Assembly: GCA_045863295.1 (NCBI GenBank)
Contig: BTWA01000006.1
Location: 32,001 to 96,000, forward strand
Reading direction: 5' to 3'
Length of the DNA: 64,000 nt
Origin: Candidatus Hydrogenedentota bacterium
GTDB taxonomy: Bacteria > Hydrogenedentota > Hydrogenedentia > Hydrogenedentales > SLHB01
Part shown: in pieces, positions 4,825-13,646 of the stretch
Layout of the letters: every line of letters begins with the position of its first letter
Numbering within the stretch: position 1 is the stretch's first letter
The notes under the pieces: generated by a model
What the model was told of the DNA's origin: nothing
The model's input: the letters and a program-made list of their open reading frames with translations, nothing else
Database searches by the model: none
Position numbers and translations under genes: made by a program

Positions 4825-6645
4825 ATGCGCTGCCGAGCGTACACCTTGGTTCTGCTTGTTGCCTTGCTGTTTTCCAGTTTGGTCAAGGCGCAATCGCAGC
4901 CCTCTGGTCCAGGTACGGTGGAAGGGGTGGTGTACGGACGCGATGCCTCCCTCCCGCTGCCGCGAACACTGGTATTTTCAGTGAGTCCCGACAAGATCCT
5001 GGCCAATGCCGAAGCGTGGAAAGCGCAGGGCGTCGGCGGGTTCTTTCTGGAGGGTGTGGCCAGCGAGTGGTCCAGCGATGTGTGGGCGACCGACAAGAAG
5101 CCACACACGATCGGCGCGAGCGACGAAACGTTTCAGAAGGTGCGGGAAGTAAACGCCCTGTGCAAGCGGCTCGGCATGGTGACTTATCTGAAGATTGTCT
5201 ATGCGAATCCGTTGGAGTGGTTTAACGACACGGCGTGGCAACACATCAACCACCACTTCCGGCAGTTCGCGATCTTTGCGCGCGCCGCGGGTTGCCGCGG
5301 GGTTGCACTTGATATCGAGTATGTGGGCCAACAATTCGCGTTTGACTGGGAGGGCTATACGTATGATGGGTATACGCGGAAGGATCTGATCCGGACCATT
5401 CGCGAGCGGTCCGCCGGACAACTTCGGGCGATGTACGACGAGTTTCCAGAAATGGAGTTCCTCGTGCTGCCCGAAGGCGGCATTCATCTGGGGACTCACA
5501 TACAGACGTCGTGGATCGAAGTGGCGGCGGAACGTGACGCGCCCGGGGGCGTACACTTCTTCATGGAAGCCACGTATACGTCGTCGCACCTCGACCGCTA
5601 TCTCGCGTACACCAGCGCGACGAATCTTCTGTTTCGCCGTCAGTTGAGCGAACGTGGGCGGGAGTACTGGGCGCGGCGGTGCACGCTTGCCGCGGGCACC
5701 TGGCCGACCGGATTCGACATTGGGGCGAATCATGACTCTTCCCTCACCCCGACGGAACTGCGCCAAAGTTTCGCTGGTGCGCTGATGGTGTCGCCGAAGT
5801 TCAATTGGGTTTACGTCGACCGGTACGGTGAGCACCACGTGGGCAACGTTCCCGAAGACTATGAAGGCAAGACCGATTTTGCGATGGTGGCGGAGGTGTT
5901 GGGCAACCGCGAAATCGTGCTCGATGATCGCTACAAACGAATTGCCCTTGCCTTGCGCGGCCTCCCTCCCACCGATCCGGCCGCGGATCTGGGGATCGCG
6001 GCCGTGCCCCGGTTCATGCTGCCGCATGGCACGCCCACAATCGACCTCGTGCCTTCGACGTCGGTCGGCGCGGCGGAAACGGAACACGCATGGGACATTG
6101 CGATGGCGTACTACGAGGGGGAATCGCAGGATCTGCAGGCGATTTTTCAACCGATCCGGGATTGGCGTCTCATCGGACCGTTTCCAAGCGGCGACGGGCT
6201 TACGGGGCACGATGCCGTGTACGGGCCGGAAAAGGAAATTGATTTAACGGCGGCGTACGAGGGTGCGAACGGATCGGTGGCGTGGCAGCCGTTCCGCCTT
6301 GCGGACGGCGCACTGGGCATTGATTTCAAACCCATGTTCACACCGAACGAAAACGCGGTGGCGTATGCGTTGACGTATGTGGAGTCGCCGGTGGAACAAG
6401 CCGTGCAAATCCGCTTCGCGTCGAACGACGCAGGCAAGTTGTGGGTGGGCGGCAAACTGGTCAACGATTTTAATCGGGAAAGTTGGTCGGTGTTGGATCG
6501 CGACATCGTCGAGGTGACGCTGCCCAAGGGCAAGACGCCGGTTTTATGCAAGGTGACGAACGGGATCGGCGCGTGGACGTTGGTGGTGCGAATCACGGAC
6601 AAGGACGGCGAGCCGGTGAAAGGGTTGGTGTTCAGTGGGGAATGA
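4825..6645 (+). CDS. Secreted hypothetical protein, possible glycoside-hydrolase-like barrel plus C-terminal beta-sandwich (PA14-like)
   Basis: GGAGG RBS before ATG 4825; signal peptide MRCRAYTLVLLVALLFSSLVKAQ; GVALDIEY; C-terminal WRLIGPF...AVAYA...SNDAGKLWVGGKLV...LCKV. Confidence 0.7.
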   Translation: MRCRAYTLVLLVALLFSSLVKAQSQPSGPGTVEGVVYGRDASLPLPRTLVFSVSPDKILANAEAWKAQGVGGFFLEGVASEWSSDVWATDKKPHTIGASDETFQKVREVNALCKRLGMVTYLKIVYANPLEWFNDTAWQHINHHFRQFAIFARAAGCRGVALDIEYVGQQFAFDWEGYTYDGYTRKDLIRTIRERSAGQLRAMYDEFPEMEFLVLPEGGIHLGTHIQTSWIEVAAERDAPGGVHFFMEATYTSSHLDRYLAYTSATNLLFRRQLSERGREYWARRCTLAAGTWPTGFDIGANHDSSLTPTELRQSFAGALMVSPKFNWVYVDRYGEHHVGNVPEDYEGKTDFAMVAEVLGNREIVLDDRYKRIALALRGLPPTDPAADLGIAAVPRFMLPHGTPTIDLVPSTSVGAAETEHAWDIAMAYYEGESQDLQAIFQPIRDWRLIGPFPSGDGLTGHDAVYGPEKEIDLTAAYEGANGSVAWQPFRLADGALGIDFKPMFTPNENAVAYALTYVESPVEQAVQIRFASNDAGKLWVGGKLVNDFNRESWSVLDRDIVEVTLPKGKTPVLCKVTNGIGAWTLVVRITDKDGEPVKGLVFSGE

Positions 6646-6760
6646 AAGAATGTGAATCTCGCGCGGAGGCGCAGAGAGGTGGCCGGGTGGATCGCCGGCG
6701 TGTGTAGAAACCTGCCGCTGCAGCCTTTGACCTTGCTGTGGTTTGGGGAGAATCTCCGCT
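6615..6760 (+). repeat. 146-bp direct repeat, copy A (left flank of the Cas9 locus)
   Basis: Ungapped alignment to 13491-13636, 128/146 identical by manual count; contains the last 10 codons of the upstream gene and most of a CRISPR repeat. Confidence 0.9.
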
Positions 6761-6808
6761 CAGGTTTACTCTGATCGATAATCATCTTATGCCCGGCATC
6801 GCTGTGGT
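6735..6808 (+). CRISPR. Orphan mini-array: near-consensus type II repeat, 30-bp spacer, truncated repeat
   Basis: 6735-6770 GCTGTGGTTTGGGGAGAATCTCCGCTCAGGTTTACT (34/36 to array repeat); exactly 30 nt later GCTGTGGT at 6801. Confidence 0.75.
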
Positions 6809-6945
6809 GTTCACTGATTTCGTATCCCATGTTGACTCGTCAATGTCCCCTATAGTCTGGCTTTTCTGTTGCATTTTCTTAGCGGATTGAAACAAGGGTA
6901 TATGATGGATTTGCGCTGTTTGCGCATTGTTCTTACTTCAAATTT

Positions 6946-6974
6946 TGGTTCATCCTCGCGTGTGTGGGGAATGT
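6946..6974. repeat. Degenerate type I-E-like CRISPR repeat (relic)
   Basis: TGGTTCATCCTCGCGTGTGTGGGGAATGT resembles CGGTTCATCCCCGC..GCGGGGAACAC repeats; a second copy lies at 7482. Confidence 0.6.
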
Positions 6975-7040
6975 TACTCGCCCGTCCCGTGGTAGACCAC
7001 CAGCGGTTCTCCGTTTTCATCCACCACATTCGAATCATCG
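6974..7040 (-). pseudogene. Fragment resembling the phage polyvalent-protein ADP-ribosyltransferase domain N-terminus
   Basis: Translates to SNVVDENGEPLVVYHGTGE-stop. Confidence 0.5.
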
Positions 7041-7438
7041 TCTGGATTGACAGAAAAAAATGGTGTGAAGTATCTGGGGATCGAGTCCAAGGGAACGCCG
7101 CAAGTTCCGTTGGCGACAGCGGCCCCGGTCTTGAGCGCCGCCGTCCGCACCTGGCGCCACTGCCCTGAATTCGGCCTCGACGGCTTTCCAGCCGGAGCCA
7201 GCAACTGTCCATGCTCCCCTCGGCCACCGAGAACACCGGCCATTGCGCATCTGGCCCGTCAGTGGTATCCTGTTTTTGGAATGGCGCTTGCCAAGATCCC
7301 GGAATCGTTGAGGCAGGTGTCGCCGGGTTGGGGTTCTCCGGGGTTCGCCCAATGCCTTCCCTTTCCCACACAATCCTCATGTTGGCCTGCCGTCCGGCGC
7401 TCAGGTACGGAAAATGCGTCCTTAACTTGCCGCTCACC

Positions 7439-7503
7439 AATGAAGGAATGTGAATTTCGCGCAGAGGCGCGGGGAGGTGGCCGGTTCATCCCCGCGTGTG
7501 TGG
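7439..7503 (+). repeat. Partial third copy of the flanking direct repeat
   Basis: AATGAAGGAATGTGAATTTCGCGCAGAGGCGCGGGGAGGTGGCCGG aligns with the sequence starting at 6641 and near 13517. Confidence 0.8.
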
Positions 7504-7510
7504 GGTTATG
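7482..7510. repeat. Degenerate type I-E-like CRISPR repeat (relic)
   Basis: CGGTTCATCCCCGCGTGTGTGGGGTTATG. Confidence 0.6.
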
Positions 7511-7526
7511 GTACATCATTGAAGTT

Positions 7527-7565
7527 CAGACCACAGGCCACGCCTTAGGCGTGGCCTGTGGTCTG
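7527..7565 (+). promoter_or_regulatory. Perfect 18-bp hairpin sequestering the 5' part of the first CRISPR repeat
   Basis: CAGACCACAGGCCACGCC-TTA-GGCGTGGCCTGTGGTCTG; right arm overlaps repeat 1 at 7555-7565. Confidence 0.75.
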
Positions 7566-8052
7566 GGGAGAATCTCCGCTCAGGTATACTCTCACCGGAC
7601 ATCGACCCAAGCTCGGATAGGCTGTGGTCTGGGGAGAATCTCCGCTCAGGTATACTTCGCGGAATCCGGGGTGAATGACGAATGTGGCTGTGGTCTGGGG
7701 AGAATCTCCGCTCAGGTATACTTAGTGCTCTACGTAGCTTTATCTGGTCTGGGCTGTGGTCTGGGGAGAATCTCCGCTCAGGTATACTCAGGTCCATGCC
7801 GACGATCTCCGCTGGGCGGCTGTGGTCTGGGGAGAATCTCCGCTCAGGTATACTACTTCCGTTCGGCAACGTCTGCACAGTCTCGCTGTGGTCTGGGGAG
7901 AATCTCCGCTCAGGTATACTCGCCGCCCCCGAGGAACGTCGCGCGAGGCGGCTGTGGTCTGGGGAGAATCTCCGCTCAGGTATACTTGCGCAGGCACTTG
8001 GCAATATAGAGGCGACGCTGTGGTCTGGGGAGAATCTCCGCTCAGGTATACT
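7555..8052 (+). CRISPR. Type II-C CRISPR array, 8 repeats of 36 bp and 7 spacers of 30 bp
   Basis: Repeat GCTGTGGTCTGGGGAGAATCTCCGCTCAGGTATACT at 7555 (first base C), 7621, 7687, 7753, 7819, 7885, 7951 and 8017; + orientation inferred from tracrRNA complementarity and the 3' TATACT -10 box. Confidence 0.98.
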
Positions 8053-8056
8053 TAGG

Positions 8057-8085
8057 CCCCGCGTAACCGTAAGCGTTACGCGGGG
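8057..8085 (+). terminator. Hairpin after the last repeat (probable pre-crRNA terminator)
   Basis: CCCCGCGTAAC-N7-GTTACGCGGGG, 11-bp stem; short U tail. Confidence 0.6.
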
Positions 8086-8196
8086 TTACTGAGTCATTTA
8101 ATGGAATTTTTGCCCCTAAATCTGTTAGAGTGCGGCTGTTAGGCCTTCGAAATAAATCGTATATGGAGACACGTGATGTCATATCGTCTGGCACTT

Positions 8197-8239
8197 AAAA
8201 TGATCCGTCCGCCAATTAAACAGAAATTGGCGGACGGAT
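8197..8239 (-). terminator. Intrinsic terminator of the 53-aa gene
   Basis: 15-bp perfect stem ATCCGTCCGCCAATT/AATTGGCGGACGGAT, 9 nt past the stop; CATTTT tail on the minus strand. Confidence 0.75.
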
Positions 8240-8248
8240 GTTCCGGAA

Positions 8249-8410
8249 TTACTTCTGACAGTCTCCAGCGGTGTCCTTTGCCTTGCACTGATTGCATAGT
8301 TCTCCCGAAGTCGGCTTTGTGGAAGATTCCACATAGTTGGAAGTCGGCCATAAGGAACAGTTTTTGCAACAATGCCAGGCGTCCTTGTCCTTCTTTCTGC
8401 GGTATGGCAT
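8249..8410 (-). CDS. 53-aa Cys-rich small protein (putative Zn-binding), not in the ORF track
   Basis: MPYRRKKDKDAWHCCKNCSLWPTSNYVESSTKPTSGELCNQCKAKDTAGDCQK; GGAGGTG RBS 6 nt upstream; own promoter and terminator. Confidence 0.8.
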   Translation of the reverse strand: MPYRRKKDKDAWHCCKNCSLWPTSNYVESSTKPTSGELCNQCKAKDTAGDCQK

Positions 8411-8470
8411 ACGTGTCACCTCCCTTCACGCAAAATTCTCTATATAATTGGCCTTAACCTAGATGCCATT

Positions 8471-8499
8471 ATATTATCAGGGCCAAGTGAGAAAGTCAA
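8471..8499 (-). promoter_or_regulatory. Sigma70-type promoter of the 53-aa gene
   Basis: Minus strand TTGACT-N17-TAATAT with an extended -10 TG. Confidence 0.65.
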
Positions 8500-8516
8500 T
8501 CTATTCGAATGCAGCA

Positions 8517-8582
8517 TGTTTGATGTCGTCTTTATGGCCTTAACCTGCTGTGGTTTGGCTTGACGCTCTGCTCAGGTGTACT
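8517..8582 (+). ncRNA. Putative crRNA-like regulatory RNA (scaRNA-like): pseudo-spacer plus solitary degenerate repeat 8547-8582
   Basis: GCTGTGGTTTGGCTTGACGCTCTGCTCAGGTGTACT is 28/36 identical to the array repeat; preceding 12 nt TGGCCTTAACCT are identical to 8449-8460. Confidence 0.6.
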
Positions 8583-8638
8583 GCAAAGCGCGTGCATATC
8601 TCAGTTCGAGATTGCACGCGTTTTTGCTCGCGCAGAAA

Positions 8639-8983
8639 TCAAAAAAACTGCATCTGCTCCGGAGGTTCTTCTGCAACGCGCCGCTTTTTCCCGATAAAGA
8701 TTTCCATTTTTGCGAACTGCTTGTCGGTGACCGCCAACAGTCTAACATGCCCTTCGGGAGGCAGGGCCAACCTCACCCGTTTTCGATGGACTTTGGCCGC
8801 CTCTTCGGACGGGCAGTATCGCGCATAGACCGAGAACTGCATCATTTGAAACCCGTCCTTCAGCAATTCGTTTCGGAACTGCGCGTACTTTCTTCGGGCA
8901 TCTTTGGTGGTGACGGGTAGATCAAAGAGGGCGAACAGCCACATGCCTTTGTATCCCGAGACTTCGAATCGTTGTTGGGTCAT
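8639..8983 (-). CDS. cas2: CRISPR-associated endonuclease Cas2 (type II)
   Basis: MWLFALFDLPV...FRNELLKDGFQMMQFSVYAR...LPPEGHVRLLAVTDKQF. Confidence 0.97.
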   Translation of the reverse strand: MTQQRFEVSGYKGMWLFALFDLPVTTKDARRKYAQFRNELLKDGFQMMQFSVYARYCPSEEAAKVHRKRVRLALPPEGHVRLLAVTDKQFAKMEIFIGKKRRVAEEPPEQMQFF

Positions 8984-9200: not shown

Positions 9201-10091
9201 TCAGAGTTCTGGCAGAATCAGCGTCCTTCTCTTTCCAAGGTAAACTTTTGCCAAGGACGATGCCGTGCGATTCAATATGTCAAAGAGGGTTCTTTCTTCG
9301 CCTTTGATCGTAAAGCGCTGGATGAGCGCGGCCACAATGACACGTTTGGCTTCGGTGTCGAGTTGCTGTTCCATTCCTTCCCTGCTTTGAACCAATTCGA
9401 CCACGGCTTTGTCGACAAGCGGTCGAAACGGTTCCATGAGATCCGAGGCGAGCGGAAAATTGTCGTAACGATTATGGTGGTGTAACCCAAGTCCCGGGTG
9501 CAGTCCCGCCGCGCAAATGGCGCGTCCAGTGGTGGCGCGGAGAACGCCGTAGCCGTAATTGAGATAATTATTTTCGACTCCTGCTTCCGCTCCGCGTCTA
9601 AATTCGCGGTTGCCGAAGAGTTTTTTCCAGTAGCGTACCGCCGCTTGAGCTTCCTGGTTATCTGGATCGCCGGAACGGACACGGGGAACCAAGGCTGTAA
9701 GGCCTGCGTCGTCACCGTGCATCGCAAGTAGTAGTCGAGACTGAGCACCTATTTTGGCGCGCACTAATTGCCGCCATAGTCTTTTTCGAACGGAAAGTCC
9801 TGACTCTGCCTGTTTGGAAAAGCGTTCAGACTGCAAATGGTGGCTCTGCAAAGGCAATAATATTCCGACTGGCGAGTGCCGACCATCGCACACAATACAG
9901 GATGAACCCTTGGCCATCAGACCGGCCAGTACTGCACCCGTAATTGTTATATGCGGATGGCCGAGCACTAATACACCTACTTCATCCAACGGCGCTTGGG
10001 AGGTAAGCGATTGTTGTTCGACTATCAACTGATCGTTGTGTACCTTGACCTTACCTGACGCGTTGGCAATGTCAATTATTCGATTAGTCAT
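9201..10091 (-). CDS. cas1: CRISPR-associated endonuclease Cas1 (type II)
   Basis: SGDPDNQEAQAA, NNYLNYGYGVLRA, GLHHHN and LASDLMEPFRPLVD motifs. Confidence 0.97.
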   Translation of the reverse strand: MTNRIIDIANASGKVKVHNDQLIVEQQSLTSQAPLDEVGVLVLGHPHITITGAVLAGLMAKGSSCIVCDGRHSPVGILLPLQSHHLQSERFSKQAESGLSVRKRLWRQLVRAKIGAQSRLLLAMHGDDAGLTALVPRVRSGDPDNQEAQAAVRYWKKLFGNREFRRGAEAGVENNYLNYGYGVLRATTGRAICAAGLHPGLGLHHHNRYDNFPLASDLMEPFRPLVDKAVVELVQSREGMEQQLDTEAKRVIVAALIQRFTIKGEERTLFDILNRTASSLAKVYLGKRRTLILPEL

Positions 10092-13000
10092 TGGAGTGTC
10101 GAAGCGCTCCTAACGGCGAAACTGAAAGTTTGCGCGATGAGCGTCGTCTAAGCGCGTTCAGGCGAGGCATCTCCCAGCCTCCTGAAGAAATTATCTCCTT
10201 TTTCAGTCTAGCGTCAACGAGCCCAGCAAGGCTGACACGATCCTTCGAAATCCCTCTCACTAATGCCAAAGTAGTGGAACCATCTTCCATATTCATTTGC
10301 AGCACGTCTCCAATCGCCAAGCTCATGACAAACCGCCTTCCCTCGCCGTGATCTCGCTGAACGATGGGCTGCTTGTTTCGAAGCCGCTGCAGAGCCGTGT
10401 ATTGATCGACAATGATGTCTTCCCACTTGGGTTCGCCTTTTTTGTCGAGCACCTCGATGATTTCCATGTGATGGTTTGACGCGGGCACGACGTGGCGGTT
10501 GCGACCGGTTTGTCCAATCTGAAATGTTGAGGCACGTTTCCGGATTCTCACGCGTTTGATAGGGACCGAGCCGCCGGCTTTCCGAGAAAGTTTGGGTAAG
10601 TTGTCTTTGTCTGCGAATGCTTTCTTGGTGTCGTCTGTTCCCAACTCGAGCAACTTCTGCTTTACGGCGTCATATACAGCGCGGTCGACAATGGCCTCGA
10701 CCTCATTCGCGCTGATACCGTCGATGGGCTTACGGACATGCACGCAAGGTTTGCCTTCTTCATCGACGTATATTTTGCTGTACAGCGTTTCCTCATGGAG
10801 GGGTCCGCTAACGCGTCGTGAGACTCGATGGGACACGATCATGGAGGCAATGGCGGTCTGGACATCCTGCAGAAATGTATTCCATGGGATTTCCATTTTC
10901 TTCCACCATCGGCGCATTTGCTCGTCGCCGCCTTTTTTCGCGGCGTCGCTCAATTGTTTGAGTGTTCGCGTATCGGTGAGTGCGATGGCGATGGCATCAA
11001 TCGCGTGGTGGCGGTGGTCGTCGCGCGACTTCCGGGGGCCGTCCGAGAGAATGCGGTTTAGATTCCATGCGTTGCGCAAGATGGCAGTGACCTCTCCCCT
11101 GCCCGGTTGAACGCGCTTCTTCCCGGCTGCGTCGACGATTCCGCCATAGAGCAAGCCCAGAAACCGGGAGGCGATAGTGGACACGTAGCGAGTATCGCTA
11201 AGTTGGCGGTTGGTGAACGAGTCGAGGCTTTCAAGGGACTTCATTTTGAAGCGGCGCAGTTTGGCTTCGCGCGCGTCGCCTTGAAAACGTCCTACGCGGG
11301 TGATGATAGCGTCCCACTCTGGAGACTCTCCGTAGGCCTCCCATGGAGTTTTGTTACGCTTTCTGTTGCGGTTCTCCTCGTGATAACAGAGGGTCTTGTT
11401 CATAAACGAGTCATCAAGGCATCGTGCAAAAGGGAGTATGTGCTCTACATCGAACTGTGATTGCTCTCCGATGAGATTATTGATGCCGATGGATTTGCCG
11501 GTGTAGGGGCATTCCCACCCGCATTCCTCGGCCAGGAGGATGCGTTCGATATCCTCTCGGCTTGGATGGGGGTTGCCGGTTTTCTTATGGATTTGTGCGG
11601 CGGCGGCCTCGCGTTGTTTTTGGCGTTGGCGGTTCTTCTTCCAGGCTTCTTCCCGTTTTTTTCGGGGCTTTTTCATATCGCGCGCGAGTTCGATCCTGAT
11701 TAAATCGGGTTTTCCATGTTCGCGAATGATGGCGTTGACCACTTTGCGCAATTCGGTAAGGGTGCGTTGCACCATGGGGTTGCGAAGGACAATTCCTGAG
11801 TCTTCAAGCATAGGAAGCGCGGTCAAGGGGCGATCCTCGAATCGTTGTGAGCCGTATTCATTCTTGATCGCGGTCTGGAGGAATTCCCCTTGTTCCAATC
11901 TTGGGACGAGCTTAGCGAGTGCTTGCCGGGAAAACCGGCTGTAGCCGGGTTCCAATCGGATTTGGGCCAGATCCTCAGCGGTGTCCGAGTCGAGCTTCCA
12001 GCGTTTGATGCCGCGAGATTTCAATGTTTCCTGTTTGACCGTGCTCAAGATCTCTTCCACGAGTTCGTTTTGTTCCCGGGGTGGCATTTGCAGCCAGCGT
12101 TCGCCGAGAATGGCGTGCAGTTTTGCGGCCGTTCGGTTGCCGGGCAGCTTTTCCTCGCCCCCGGCCTCCAGATTAAATTTGGTGGTCTTCTTGAGCTTCA
12201 AAAGCGTTCGAATAGCGGAGAATTTGGCGTCTCCTTGAAAACTCAACTTTGAAATGATGGCCTCGCGCTGTTCCGCCGTGAGTGGAATCGTCTCGCCGTC
12301 TTCCAGAATGCAAAGATCGTTGATTCGCTGCAGCATGCGAATTTTTTGCGAATCCAGAATGGCGATAGGGGCTCTCTTTCGTCCGAGTTCCAATTCACAT
12401 TGACCGATGAGATTTTTTTGCGATTTCAAAGGCCGTTGGCGAAAGATGCATCGATATATCTCTTGTTTTGCAGCCTCGGATAACAAATCGGGATGGTGTG
12501 CCATCTGCGCATTCCAGATGGCATCAAATTCGGCTTTGTACATGGCACGAGAGGTCCAACGGCTGCGGATTCGGGATTCGTGTGGATTCAGTCCCGCGAA
12601 GTATTCACCCAGCGTTCTCGCGCGGGCCTCGTTCATCATGGTTTGGAGCTGAGAGATTCCTTCCTTGACCTGTCCTTCTTCTTCATCGTCCTTGGCCGTT
12701 GATTTCCGATTGGTCTCAAACCCGCGGCGGTGCCCCAAGTGATAAATGGCGCGGCCAAGGGCGTGGGCTTTAAGAGGATGGTCTAAAGCGCGTGCGCGGA
12801 GGAAGTAGGGCAGTTGATCGAGCAGGTTTGAGTCGATGCCTATCGATTTATACGAATCGTAGAGTTGGGCATCTAGCGTCTTGAAAAATTGATGCCTGGC
12901 CATATGATCGCGGATATCGCCTGACGGGAGCAGACCCATACGTTGCAGCGCGGCGGCAGTCTTGGCCATTCGGCGTCTGCGACGGTCGGCCTGCTTGCGT

Positions 13001-13209
13001 TGTTGCCGTGCCTCGCGGCGTTTGGCGTTTCGTGATTCGTCTTTGCCTTGTTCAATGTCCTGTGCTGTGCCGTCAACGCCGGGATCAAAGACTCGGGCGC
13101 CAGAGCGTATCAGCCGAGTGGGTTTTCCGGCTGCGTACTCGATTAGTGCCCAACCGACTGAGTTTGTGCCCAGATCAAGCCCAAGCACCATTTCGTTGTT
13201 TGTGCCCAT
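10084..13209 (-). CDS. cas9: Type II-C Cas9 endonuclease, 1041 aa
   Basis: RuvC-I LGLDLGTNSVGWA; Arg-rich bridge helix; RuvC-II IRIELARD; HNH CPYTG...DVEHILP...DDSFMNK; RuvC-III HHAIDA; no csn2 or cas4 in the locus. Confidence 0.98.
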   Translation of the reverse strand: MGTNNEMVLGLDLGTNSVGWALIEYAAGKPTRLIRSGARVFDPGVDGTAQDIEQGKDESRNAKRREARQQRKQADRRRRRMAKTAAALQRMGLLPSGDIRDHMARHQFFKTLDAQLYDSYKSIGIDSNLLDQLPYFLRARALDHPLKAHALGRAIYHLGHRRGFETNRKSTAKDDEEEGQVKEGISQLQTMMNEARARTLGEYFAGLNPHESRIRSRWTSRAMYKAEFDAIWNAQMAHHPDLLSEAAKQEIYRCIFRQRPLKSQKNLIGQCELELGRKRAPIAILDSQKIRMLQRINDLCILEDGETIPLTAEQREAIISKLSFQGDAKFSAIRTLLKLKKTTKFNLEAGGEEKLPGNRTAAKLHAILGERWLQMPPREQNELVEEILSTVKQETLKSRGIKRWKLDSDTAEDLAQIRLEPGYSRFSRQALAKLVPRLEQGEFLQTAIKNEYGSQRFEDRPLTALPMLEDSGIVLRNPMVQRTLTELRKVVNAIIREHGKPDLIRIELARDMKKPRKKREEAWKKNRQRQKQREAAAAQIHKKTGNPHPSREDIERILLAEECGWECPYTGKSIGINNLIGEQSQFDVEHILPFARCLDDSFMNKTLCYHEENRNRKRNKTPWEAYGESPEWDAIITRVGRFQGDAREAKLRRFKMKSLESLDSFTNRQLSDTRYVSTIASRFLGLLYGGIVDAAGKKRVQPGRGEVTAILRNAWNLNRILSDGPRKSRDDHRHHAIDAIAIALTDTRTLKQLSDAAKKGGDEQMRRWWKKMEIPWNTFLQDVQTAIASMIVSHRVSRRVSGPLHEETLYSKIYVDEEGKPCVHVRKPIDGISANEVEAIVDRAVYDAVKQKLLELGTDDTKKAFADKDNLPKLSRKAGGSVPIKRVRIRKRASTFQIGQTGRNRHVVPASNHHMEIIEVLDKKGEPKWEDIIVDQYTALQRLRNKQPIVQRDHGEGRRFVMSLAIGDVLQMNMEDGSTTLALVRGISKDRVSLAGLVDARLKKEIISSGGWEMPRLNALRRRSSRKLSVSPLGALRHSND

Positions 13210-13262: not shown

Positions 13263-13373
13263 CAGTATACCTGAGCGGAGATTGTCCTCCAAATCACAGT
13301 AAGGACTTTCAAGTCCGCGGGCAACGTCCTACGGGACGTCCATTGCGCCTCCCTGTTGGGGCGCTTTTTTTTT
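13263..13373 (+). ncRNA. tracrRNA
   Basis: Anti-repeat 13264-13300, whose first 20 nt are the perfect reverse complement of repeat nt 17-36; then AAGG and nexus GGACTTTCAAGTCC, hairpin ACGTCCTACGGGACGT, GC hairpin and T9 terminator. Confidence 0.92.
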
Positions 13374-13490: not shown

Positions 13491-13646
13491 GGTGAAAGGG
13501 TTGGCGTTCAGTGGGGACTGAAGGAACGTGAATCTCGGGCAGAGGCGCAGGGATGTGGCCCGGTGGATCGCCGGCGTGTGCAGAATTCTGCGGCTGCACC
13601 GTTTGACCCTGTTGTGGTCTGGGGAGAATCTCCGCTTACATACACG
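13491..13646 (+). repeat. Direct repeat copy B (right flank) ending in a solitary degenerate type II repeat (13611-13646, 30/36)
   Basis: Aligns with 6615-6760; GTTGTGGTCTGGGGAGAATCTCCGCTTACATACACG. Confidence 0.9.

Follow-up and report, generated by a model that had tools for sequence, protein, structure and literature searches.

A small zinc-finger-like protein gene and a divergent crRNA-like unit in an insert within a type II-C CRISPR-Cas9 locus of a Candidatus Hydrogenedentota bacterium

Results

A small gene with its own expression signals lies between the CRISPR array and cas2

The 64,000-nucleotide (nt) stretch of Candidatus Hydrogenedentota DNA analysed here (GenBank assembly GCA_045863295.1, contig BTWA01000006.1, positions 32,001 to 96,000; the window) contains a type II-C CRISPR-Cas9 locus (CRISPR, clustered regularly interspaced short palindromic repeats) in which a gene for a 53-residue protein rich in cysteine and histidine is found between the CRISPR array and cas2, alongside a divergent unit resembling a CRISPR RNA (crRNA) gene. 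The minus strand encodes cas9 (10084..13209; 1041 residues, a type II-C size; TIGR01865, expectation value (E) 4.7e-206), cas1 (9201..10091; TIGR03639, 7.7e-77) and cas2 (8639..8983; TIGR01573, 5.9e-19). The array, identified by repeat search on the plus strand (7555..8052), consists of eight 36-nt repeats and seven 30-nt spacers. A trans-activating crRNA (tracrRNA) with a 37-nt anti-repeat, two hairpins and a T9 terminator is assigned by repeat comparison and folding to 13264..13372 on the plus strand, divergent from cas9.

The coding sequence of the small gene, supported by its translation, by homologues and by codon comparisons, occupies 8249..8410 on the minus strand including the stop codon, and translation of 8410..8249 yields exactly the 53 residues quoted in a first-pass annotation of this DNA. 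The Shine-Dalgarno sequence GGAGGTG (8423-8417) can be read directly 6 nt 5' of the ATG. A promoter scan of the minus strand places TTGACT (8499-8494) and TAATAT (8476-8471) at a spacing of 17 nt (8471..8499), with 9 of 12 consensus matches and an extended -10 element formed by TG at 8479-8478; from this promoter, transcription is predicted to start at about 8464. Downstream, a terminator scan identifies a perfect stem of 15 base pairs (bp) with a 7-nt loop followed by CATTTTAAGT (8239-8203, minus strand). The first-pass annotation had described a small transcription unit, listing an extended -10 promoter, the ribosome-binding site GGAGGTG and a terminator stem of 15 bp, and all of these are present in the sequence. 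Its span of 8249-8423 does cover the reading frame and the ribosome-binding site; promoter and terminator are located outside it.

An alternative GTG start at 8419 would extend the protein to 56 residues; this start was rejected, as the GTG falls within the ribosome-binding site and the N-termini of homologues agree with the ATG instead. The antisense strand holds a 94-residue frame (8173..8457) that has no Pfam match. A metagenome contig from a second study (run X2) is identical to the window over 8252-8565. No variant lacking the gene was seen in the contigs of four DNA runs, in which contigs are short and the gene is spanned only in runs X1 and X2.

Related loci indicate that the gene came in with an insert

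Eight metagenome loci carry almost the same repeat as the window array. In the three that reach the cas2 side (L122, L119 and L120), whose cas2 DNA is 71% identical to that of the window, the last intact repeat is followed by a hairpin and then by cas2, with no small gene. The window starts alike, its last repeat ending at 8052 and a hairpin following at 8057..8085 on the plus strand, the place at which related loci also have one, and then continues for about 550 extra bases before cas2 is reached. A 588-bp stretch at this site is unique in the genome. Judged by this comparison, the small gene came in as part of an insert of about 550 bp, together with the divergent crRNA-like unit.

The insert encodes a crRNA-like unit with a seed match to the start region of the small gene

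The crRNA-like unit is oriented on the plus strand. Its promoter-like site (8448..8475) combines TTGGCC and TATATT at a spacing of 16 nt with 9 of 12 matches, and its -10 element overlaps the -10 element of the small gene on the opposite strand. Sequence comparison delimits a pseudo-spacer (8517..8546), which is followed by a degenerate CRISPR repeat (8547..8582) recognized by repeat comparison and tracrRNA pairing. This repeat shares 28 of 36 positions with the array repeat and lies outside the array proper, separated from it by 494 bp. A folded hairpin (8589-8620) followed by T5 provides a terminator-like end to the unit (8589..8625) just before the stop codon of cas2; the terminator scan, restricted to loops of 3-8 nt and no internal mismatch, did not report this hairpin. 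Two other assignments of the degenerate repeat were dropped: it is not the tracrRNA anti-repeat, the real tracrRNA being that at 13264-13372 (plus strand), and it is not the decayed terminal repeat of the array, since related arrays end in an intact repeat plus hairpin.

The last 12 nt of the pseudo-spacer (8535-8546), TGGCCTTAACCT, directly abut the degenerate repeat, and this repeat-proximal end is the seed position of a Cas9 guide. Sequence search finds a second copy at 8449..8460, the putative target, which lies at about +5..+16 of the predicted small-gene transcript and overlaps the -35 element of the opposite, crRNA-like promoter. Within the 6.3-Mb genome, TGGCCTTAACCT is confined to these two sites, and no match to the corresponding 11-mer arose in any of 100 shuffles of the window. 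Of the 18 positions that precede the 12-mer, only 3 agree with the flank of the putative target. The flank on the side of the protospacer-adjacent motif (PAM), AGATGCCA (8461..8468, plus strand), overlaps the transcription start and -10 region of the small gene. For the small gene, the strand bound by the guide would be the non-template one, which is the effective orientation for blocking transcription in work with catalytically dead Cas9. Control of the small gene by the adjacent guide had been one of several suggestions in the first-pass annotation; the match of the 12-nt seed to the promoter and start region supports it and gives the regulation a direction.

A related type II-C locus (L039, 9180-9978; Planctomicrobium sp. 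SH661, NZ_CP195791.1) has, between cas9 and cas1, a near-complete repeat that stands alone (9210-9244). Beside it lies a small DUF1508 gene (9539-9739) with its own ribosome-binding site and terminator.

The degenerate repeat is predicted to pair with the tracrRNA at -49.7 kcal/mol, compared with -58.4 kcal/mol for the array repeat. Random variants of the array repeat with eight substitutions average -33.6 kcal/mol (standard deviation 5.3), and 0.1% of 1000 are as stable as the degenerate repeat. Because the U at position 9 is the state found in related arrays, the test was redone from a related-array ancestor, from which 1.2% of 2000 random variants with seven substitutions were as stable. 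The corresponding fraction was 2.8% in a block control with five of the changes clustered and 29 of 406 (7.1%) for non-central transition pairs. Retained pairing with the tracrRNA, as judged from predicted energies, is therefore suggestive and not decisive.

The protein belongs to a large unnamed family in bacteria and archaea

The 53-residue protein matches no Pfam or NCBIfam family at E<=1 and no PADLOC model at E<=0.1. With no cas model matching either, the first-pass view that this is not a recognized type II cas gene holds. Among PHROGs, the only match is phrog_2855 (function unknown), obtained with four of eight members at E 0.003-0.03. The ESM Atlas returned unnamed clusters only, a profile search of PDB sequences gave nothing below E 0.1 and a literature search with family motif strings found no match.

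Homologues are nonetheless numerous. Thirteen close ones are 60-76% identical, 623 clusters of a representative library belong to the family at E<=0.001, and 28 and subsequently 49 family loci were located in species-representative genomes from many bacterial phyla; archaeal carriers are found in Methanobacteriaceae, Halobacteria, Bathyarchaeia and Nitrososphaeria. Within the phylum of the window, 2 of 135 genomes carry the family. Among the 14 closest sequences, W12, H13, C18, W21, P22, C39 and C42 are invariant. In an alignment of 78 sequences, C18, P22 and C42 are invariant, R4, W12, H13, C15, W21 and P33 are conserved in at least 90%, and C39 is replaced by D in some members. A homologue search, named as a check in the first-pass annotation, has hence returned relatives with conserved Cys and Trp, and the pattern WH-C-xx-C...WP...C-xx-C pointed out there turns out to be the conserved core of the family, in keeping with the zinc-binding mini-domain it suggested.

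The proportion of non-synonymous differences (pN) is below that of synonymous differences (pS) in 62 of 62 codon comparisons, with a median pS of 0.88 and a median pN of 0.26; four of 66 loci were skipped here owing to a match range that was out of frame or contained a stop. Synonymous sites across the family are saturated and non-synonymous change is low. On the strength of the homologues, the 623 clusters and the uniform pN<pS, the 53-residue frame is a real gene, beyond chance, and by the same kind of comparison its family is large, unnamed and without a Pfam, NCBIfam or PADLOC model.

The predicted structure resembles a treble-clef zinc finger

An AlphaFold2 model built from a 78-row alignment has a predicted local distance difference test score of 90.6 and consists of strands at residues 3-6, 11-13 and 26-29 and a helix at 40-48. 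In the model, C15 and C18 follow the strand at 11-13, and C39 and C42 open the helix. Treble clefs combine a CxxC knuckle after a strand with two ligands at the N-terminus of a helix. We infer that the protein is a treble-clef-like zinc finger, with C15 and C18 as the CxxC knuckle and C39 and C42 as the CxxC at the helix start.

Foldseek found no matches in the PDB. A wide VIA-align search gave four of 48,161 chains at Z>=2, the top two being the Zn(Cys)4 domain of Ada (1u8b, Z 2.9; 1eyf, Z 2.5), and Foldseek against BFVD returned 42 weak rows, all at E>=0.29, of which four are Ada-like by name at E>=3.6. The N-terminal Zn(Cys)4 domain of Ada (PF02805) is likewise a small zinc domain with four cysteines, which binds DNA in Ada. 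It differs in Cys spacing, shows no sequence relation and scores structurally below any useful threshold: hhalign of the 78 family sequences against 18 Ada domains gives a probability of 0.2%, and none of the 78 members matches Ada_Zn_binding (PF02805) among the families listed in a per-member scan. Co-folding of the protein with the HNH domain of Cas9 (residues 512-670) returned no verdict (score 0.00 in two runs without controls) and counts neither for nor against an interaction.

Family members occur in mobile and defence contexts and as C-terminal domains

Eight of 34 longer members have a clear Pfam domain N-terminal to the zinc-finger domain, namely HNH, AHJR-like restriction endonuclease, CAP12 TIR, Response_reg, an AraC helix-turn-helix (HTH), HicB-like, DUF433 or DUF2442. 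Several other N-termini among the longer members are membrane-like, and three are tandem duplications. One fusion, a 338-residue TIR protein with the zinc-finger domain at its C-terminus, matches the PADLOC candidate PDC-S35 (2e-78). In HicB antitoxins and response regulators, the C-terminal position is normally taken by a DNA-binding domain. Given this placement in the HicB-like and receiver fusions, the family protein most likely binds nucleic acid, and the nucleic-acid binding considered possible in the first-pass annotation fits the fusions to DNA-binding regulators and nucleases.

We examined the surroundings of 66 family loci, 65 from genome contigs plus one relative, two of which are near-duplicates of each other. 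Searches of the available flanks by tblastn with the window's proteins found cas9, cas1 or cas2 at none of them, and a Pfam scan of 107 neighbours found no Cas domain. A CRISPR array lies within the flanks in two of the 66, each of another repeat type. The idea of a family-wide modulator of Cas9 or Cas1-Cas2, also raised in the first-pass annotation, finds no support in these counts, and a direct role of the window's protein in modulating either is unlikely.

Recurrent neighbours are instead a BLAST cluster that includes XRE-type HTH proteins (12 of 66 loci; the Pfam check covered part of its members), an M78 peptidase cluster (six) and DUF2188 proteins, which are adjacent in five loci and match the PADLOC candidate PDC-S16 (E 1.7e-34; L001 10172-10453, L012 6183-6464 and L017 9705-9989). 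Transposases, XhoI, TIR, Cdc6 and GemA are also found near family genes. An unnamed, Cys-rich neighbour of about 83 residues is present in 14 loci (L006, L010, L011, L013, L019, L021, L023, L024, L027, L075, L083, L098, L100 and L101), tail-to-tail in 12 of them, where the two genes are 0-88 nt apart or overlap, and head-to-head in two. The zinc-finger gene and this gene look like a conserved two-gene cassette. The partner carries the pattern Q-x-C-K-x-C ... VPD..W..VVP ... C-L-x-C-F-D and belongs to no Pfam family. It is absent from the genome of the window (best E 0.135, with stops), and tblastn for remnants of the family's usual neighbours within 6400-8700 found none. In an Acidobacteriota metagenome-assembled genome (L027, 9920-10560; OZ250169.1), the cassette sits between 36-nt perfect inverted repeats, directly beside two CRISPR arrays of other repeat types; it is the sole one of the 14 cassettes with such inverted repeats.

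The other carrier in the phylum (G054:C160; L033 / L123) has a 99-residue HNH gene 84 nt after the zinc-finger gene, and genes resembling an extracytoplasmic function (ECF) sigma factor and an M78 peptidase upstream on the opposite strand. Its flanks are unrelated to those of the window gene. The broad and patchy spread, the mobile and defence contexts and the lack of cas genes indicate that the family is horizontally mobile and not a CRISPR accessory. Judged by its genomic settings, it is a stand-alone gene in mobile or defence-island contexts and, in addition, a C-terminal domain of larger proteins.

Further features of the CRISPR-Cas9 locus

IleS encoded in the window is 73% identical to that of Candidatus Hydrogenedentota records, compared with 52% at most for other phyla. 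From the relative orientation of repeat and anti-repeat, the crRNAs are assigned to the plus strand. Each array repeat ends in a -10-like TATACT, similar to the repeat-borne promoters described for Neisseria type II-C arrays. The tracrRNA has a predicted fold of -39.3 kcal/mol (z -3.1). Ten of 11 related array-bearing Cas9 loci share this layout, with an inverse partial repeat at 60-140 nt upstream of cas9; the contig of the eleventh begins only 272 nt before cas9.

The array and its leader are rearranged. A leader-like segment is present twice on the plus strand (6615-6760 and 13491-13636), with 88% identity over 146 nt, each copy being joined to a repeat start. One copy lies at the array's far end; the second, past the tracrRNA, has only 24 nt of repeat. 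A 12-mer next to one of the leader-like copies has two more copies on contig C8, which are chance-like and have dissimilar surroundings. The array is interrupted at 6801-7565: a leader-proximal repeat and one spacer are followed by a repeat that breaks off after 8 nt (6801-8). The roughly 750 bp after the broken repeat include an element of about 90 nt (6838-6928) that is present in at least 20 genome copies and at very high contig depth, and the interruption closes with a perfect 19-nt palindrome (7527-7565), within which the next repeat begins.

Searches with the spacers found no usable protospacer. The 24-nt 3' parts of seven spacers had no match in viral contigs, one spacer had none in metagenome contigs, and all eight spacers compared with their own genome gave only self matches and chance matches of 14-19 nt. 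The window array and a related array had no credible 30-nt match in a phage collection. For 62 related spacers, searched against the genome and all collected loci, one match of 20/21 (E 0.007) was judged to be chance.

Discussion

Starting from the gene, its family, the insert that carries it, the seed match and the predicted tracrRNA pairing that the degenerate repeat has retained, we propose the following mechanism. The crRNA-like RNA, made up of the pseudo-spacer and the degenerate repeat, would pair with the tracrRNA and be loaded into Cas9, and the resulting complex would repress the small gene through the 12-nt seed at its start region. As long as Cas9 is functional, the strongly signalled small gene and the guide's own promoter would both stay off; the putative target also covers the -35 element of the latter promoter, which would make the loop self-regulating. 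If Cas9 were lost or inhibited, the protein would be released and, more speculatively, may be a growth-arresting or defensive factor, a role on which genomic context bears through the fusions to TIR, HNH and restriction endonuclease and the neighbours that are PADLOC candidates. Of the mechanisms considered for the small gene, control by the adjacent guide has the most support, with roughly even chances. The explanation as a whole, in which a zinc-finger mini-protein gene in an insert is kept repressed by a Cas9-guide complex in the manner of the CreTA/CreP or CRISIS systems, falls slightly short of an even chance.

Several known systems resemble this arrangement in part. As in CreTA and CreP of type I-B and I-F systems, an ectopic degenerate repeat and a spacer-like segment occupy a cas locus, and a short seed match falls on the promoter of an adjacent, divergent and strongly signalled small gene. 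CreP shows that the product of a gene repressed in this way can be a protein that was captured from mobile DNA (10.1101/2024.01.05.574328). The known cases, however, use the type I complexes Cascade or Csy, whereas Cas9 and a tracrRNA would act here; CreA usually has two flanking pseudo-repeats (PMC8501985) compared with the single one in the window, and CreP is a 103-residue KilAC protein unrelated to the 53-residue zinc finger. In CRISIS, a defence supervised by a crRNA-like RNA (crlRNA), such an RNA keeps down the promoter of an adjacent gene that is not a cas gene and has relatives of defence type (10.1101/2024.12.27.630466); similarly, the family described here has TIR, HNH and PADLOC candidate proteins as fusion partners or neighbours. 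The CRISIS systems described are of type I-C, and no Cas9 case or 53-residue zinc finger was found in the available part of that report.

Among Cas9 systems, small CRISPR/Cas-associated RNA (scaRNA) of Francisella novicida (II-B) and the long tracrRNA form (tracr-L) of Streptococcus pyogenes (II-A) are short-match Cas9 guides acting near a transcription start: these repeat-derived RNAs have a short match, 11 bp in the case of tracr-L, through which Cas9 binds without cutting and represses (PMC10120712). Their targets are a lipoprotein operon and the cas9 promoter, respectively, in contrast to a small mobile gene within the same insert, and the window differs further in being type II-C and in having a crRNA-oriented guide that needs a separate tracrRNA. 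Mini-arrays other than the tracrRNA have been reported in about 6% of type II loci (PMC10120712). Within the literature available to us, no type II-C case with a protein-coding target was found; survey supplements may list such loci. PcrIIC1 is a further non-cas accessory gene inside a type II-C locus (PMC13153721). It encodes a PIN-domain protein that binds a C-terminal helix of larger Cas9s, unlike the 53-residue zinc finger, whose family has no general link to Cas9.

A number of observations weigh against repression by Cas9 or against a toxic or defensive product. Starting from the conservative ancestor, the pairing test reaches no more than moderate significance, with 7.1% in its strictest control, and the U at repeat position 9 is probably ancestral and not adaptive. 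The rearrangement that gave rise to the insert could have left the 12-nt duplicate as a scar, in a locus whose array is interrupted and whose leader is duplicated. Only a single lineage shows the arrangement, which leaves no covariation of seed and target to be seen, and at the stand-alone repeat of L039 no seed match of 8-14 nt is present in the surrounding 15 kb. The eight own and 62 related spacers yielded no usable protospacer from which the PAM of this Cas9 could be read. On the protein side, we infer zinc binding and nucleic-acid binding from the residue pattern, the model and the fusions only, and the fold searches against the PDB, with VIA-align and against BFVD gave nothing significant. 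Toxicity is also called into question by the 52 of 66 loci without the Cys-rich neighbour and by the many loci that have no adjoining repressor gene.

Some of these points would be expected if the gene were an incidental passenger, dropped in by a mobile or recombination event, with the repeat a remnant of the array, the 12-nt duplicate a scar and Cas9 uninvolved. Such a history fits a family that is not linked to CRISPR (no cas genes at any of the 66 loci and an array near two), that is mobile and patchy and in one locus has its gene pair inside 36-nt perfect inverted repeats; it also fits a window array that has itself been disrupted by an insertion with a multi-copy 90-nt element, and the 7.1% of the strictest pairing control. 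It does not readily account for a duplicate whose end coincides exactly with the repeat boundary, on the side of the seed, and whose other copy falls exactly on the start region of the gene. Nor are there terminal inverted repeats at the 74 nt between the two copies, whose flanks are otherwise dissimilar (3 of 18 upstream positions). The degenerate repeat moreover has its own promoter-like site and a hairpin-T5 terminator, and related arrays end in an intact, not a degenerate, repeat. We regard the passenger history as rather unlikely, with a substantial residual probability.

The two divergent units could also interact without Cas9, either through pairing of the 12 nt of the plus-strand RNA with the 5' end of the messenger RNA (mRNA) or through competition of the overlapping -10 boxes for RNA polymerase; in either case the repeat-like part would be irrelevant. 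The predicted mRNA can pair with the seed over about +5..+16 and the promoters overlap back to back at their -10 boxes, but antisense action gives no reason why the match should abut a repeat that is still predicted to pair with the tracrRNA, and a 12-bp match in trans with no chaperone site is weak; we consider control without Cas9 improbable. A similarly low, marginally lower, probability attaches to the protein being a modulator of the CRISPR machinery, either a captured anti-CRISPR or a pro-CRISPR factor that binds Cas9, Cas1 or Cas2. The absence of cas9, cas1 and cas2 from all 66 other family loci and the related II-C loci that lack the gene both speak against this, and identities of 55-76% across bacteria and archaea suit a universal target better than one clade of Cas9. 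The gene does sit inside a type II-C locus, and the family is tied by fusion and neighbourhood to HNH nucleases, a domain that Cas9 also has; II-C accessory pro-CRISPR factors are known in the form of PcrIIC1 (PMC13153721), a PIN-domain protein and unrelated. Lastly, the frame might be open by chance, or the RNA might be the active product, as with the known CreT toxins, which are RNAs (PMC8501985). Conservation at the protein level across phyla, with saturated synonymous sites and pN<pS in every one of the 62 comparisons, in-frame fusion of the domain to other protein domains and a confident structure model bring this last alternative close to being refuted.

Repression of the captured gene by a Cas9 guide would have consequences beyond this locus. 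In the literature searched, the CRISPR-repressed toxin or defence modules on record belong to type I systems, and for Cas9 only scaRNA and tracr-L have been described. The window may, tentatively and with more doubt than confidence, hold the first Cas9-dependent CRISPR-repressed module, a type II-C system in which a tracrRNA-dependent crRNA-like RNA with a 12-nt seed holds down a captured gene for a zinc-finger mini-protein of a new kind and in which growth arrest or defence would follow the loss or inhibition of Cas9. If this is true, the silencing of a nearby protein gene by a natural II-C guide would carry the logic of addiction and anti-anti-CRISPR over to Cas9 systems and would provide a compact natural example of seed-only repression by Cas9. 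The zinc-finger domain, found fused to TIR, HNH and restriction endonuclease effectors and to regulators as well, would then serve bacterial and archaeal conflict systems widely as a nucleic-acid-binding module. Naming the family, with its 623 representative clusters, would annotate many small genes that are currently blank.

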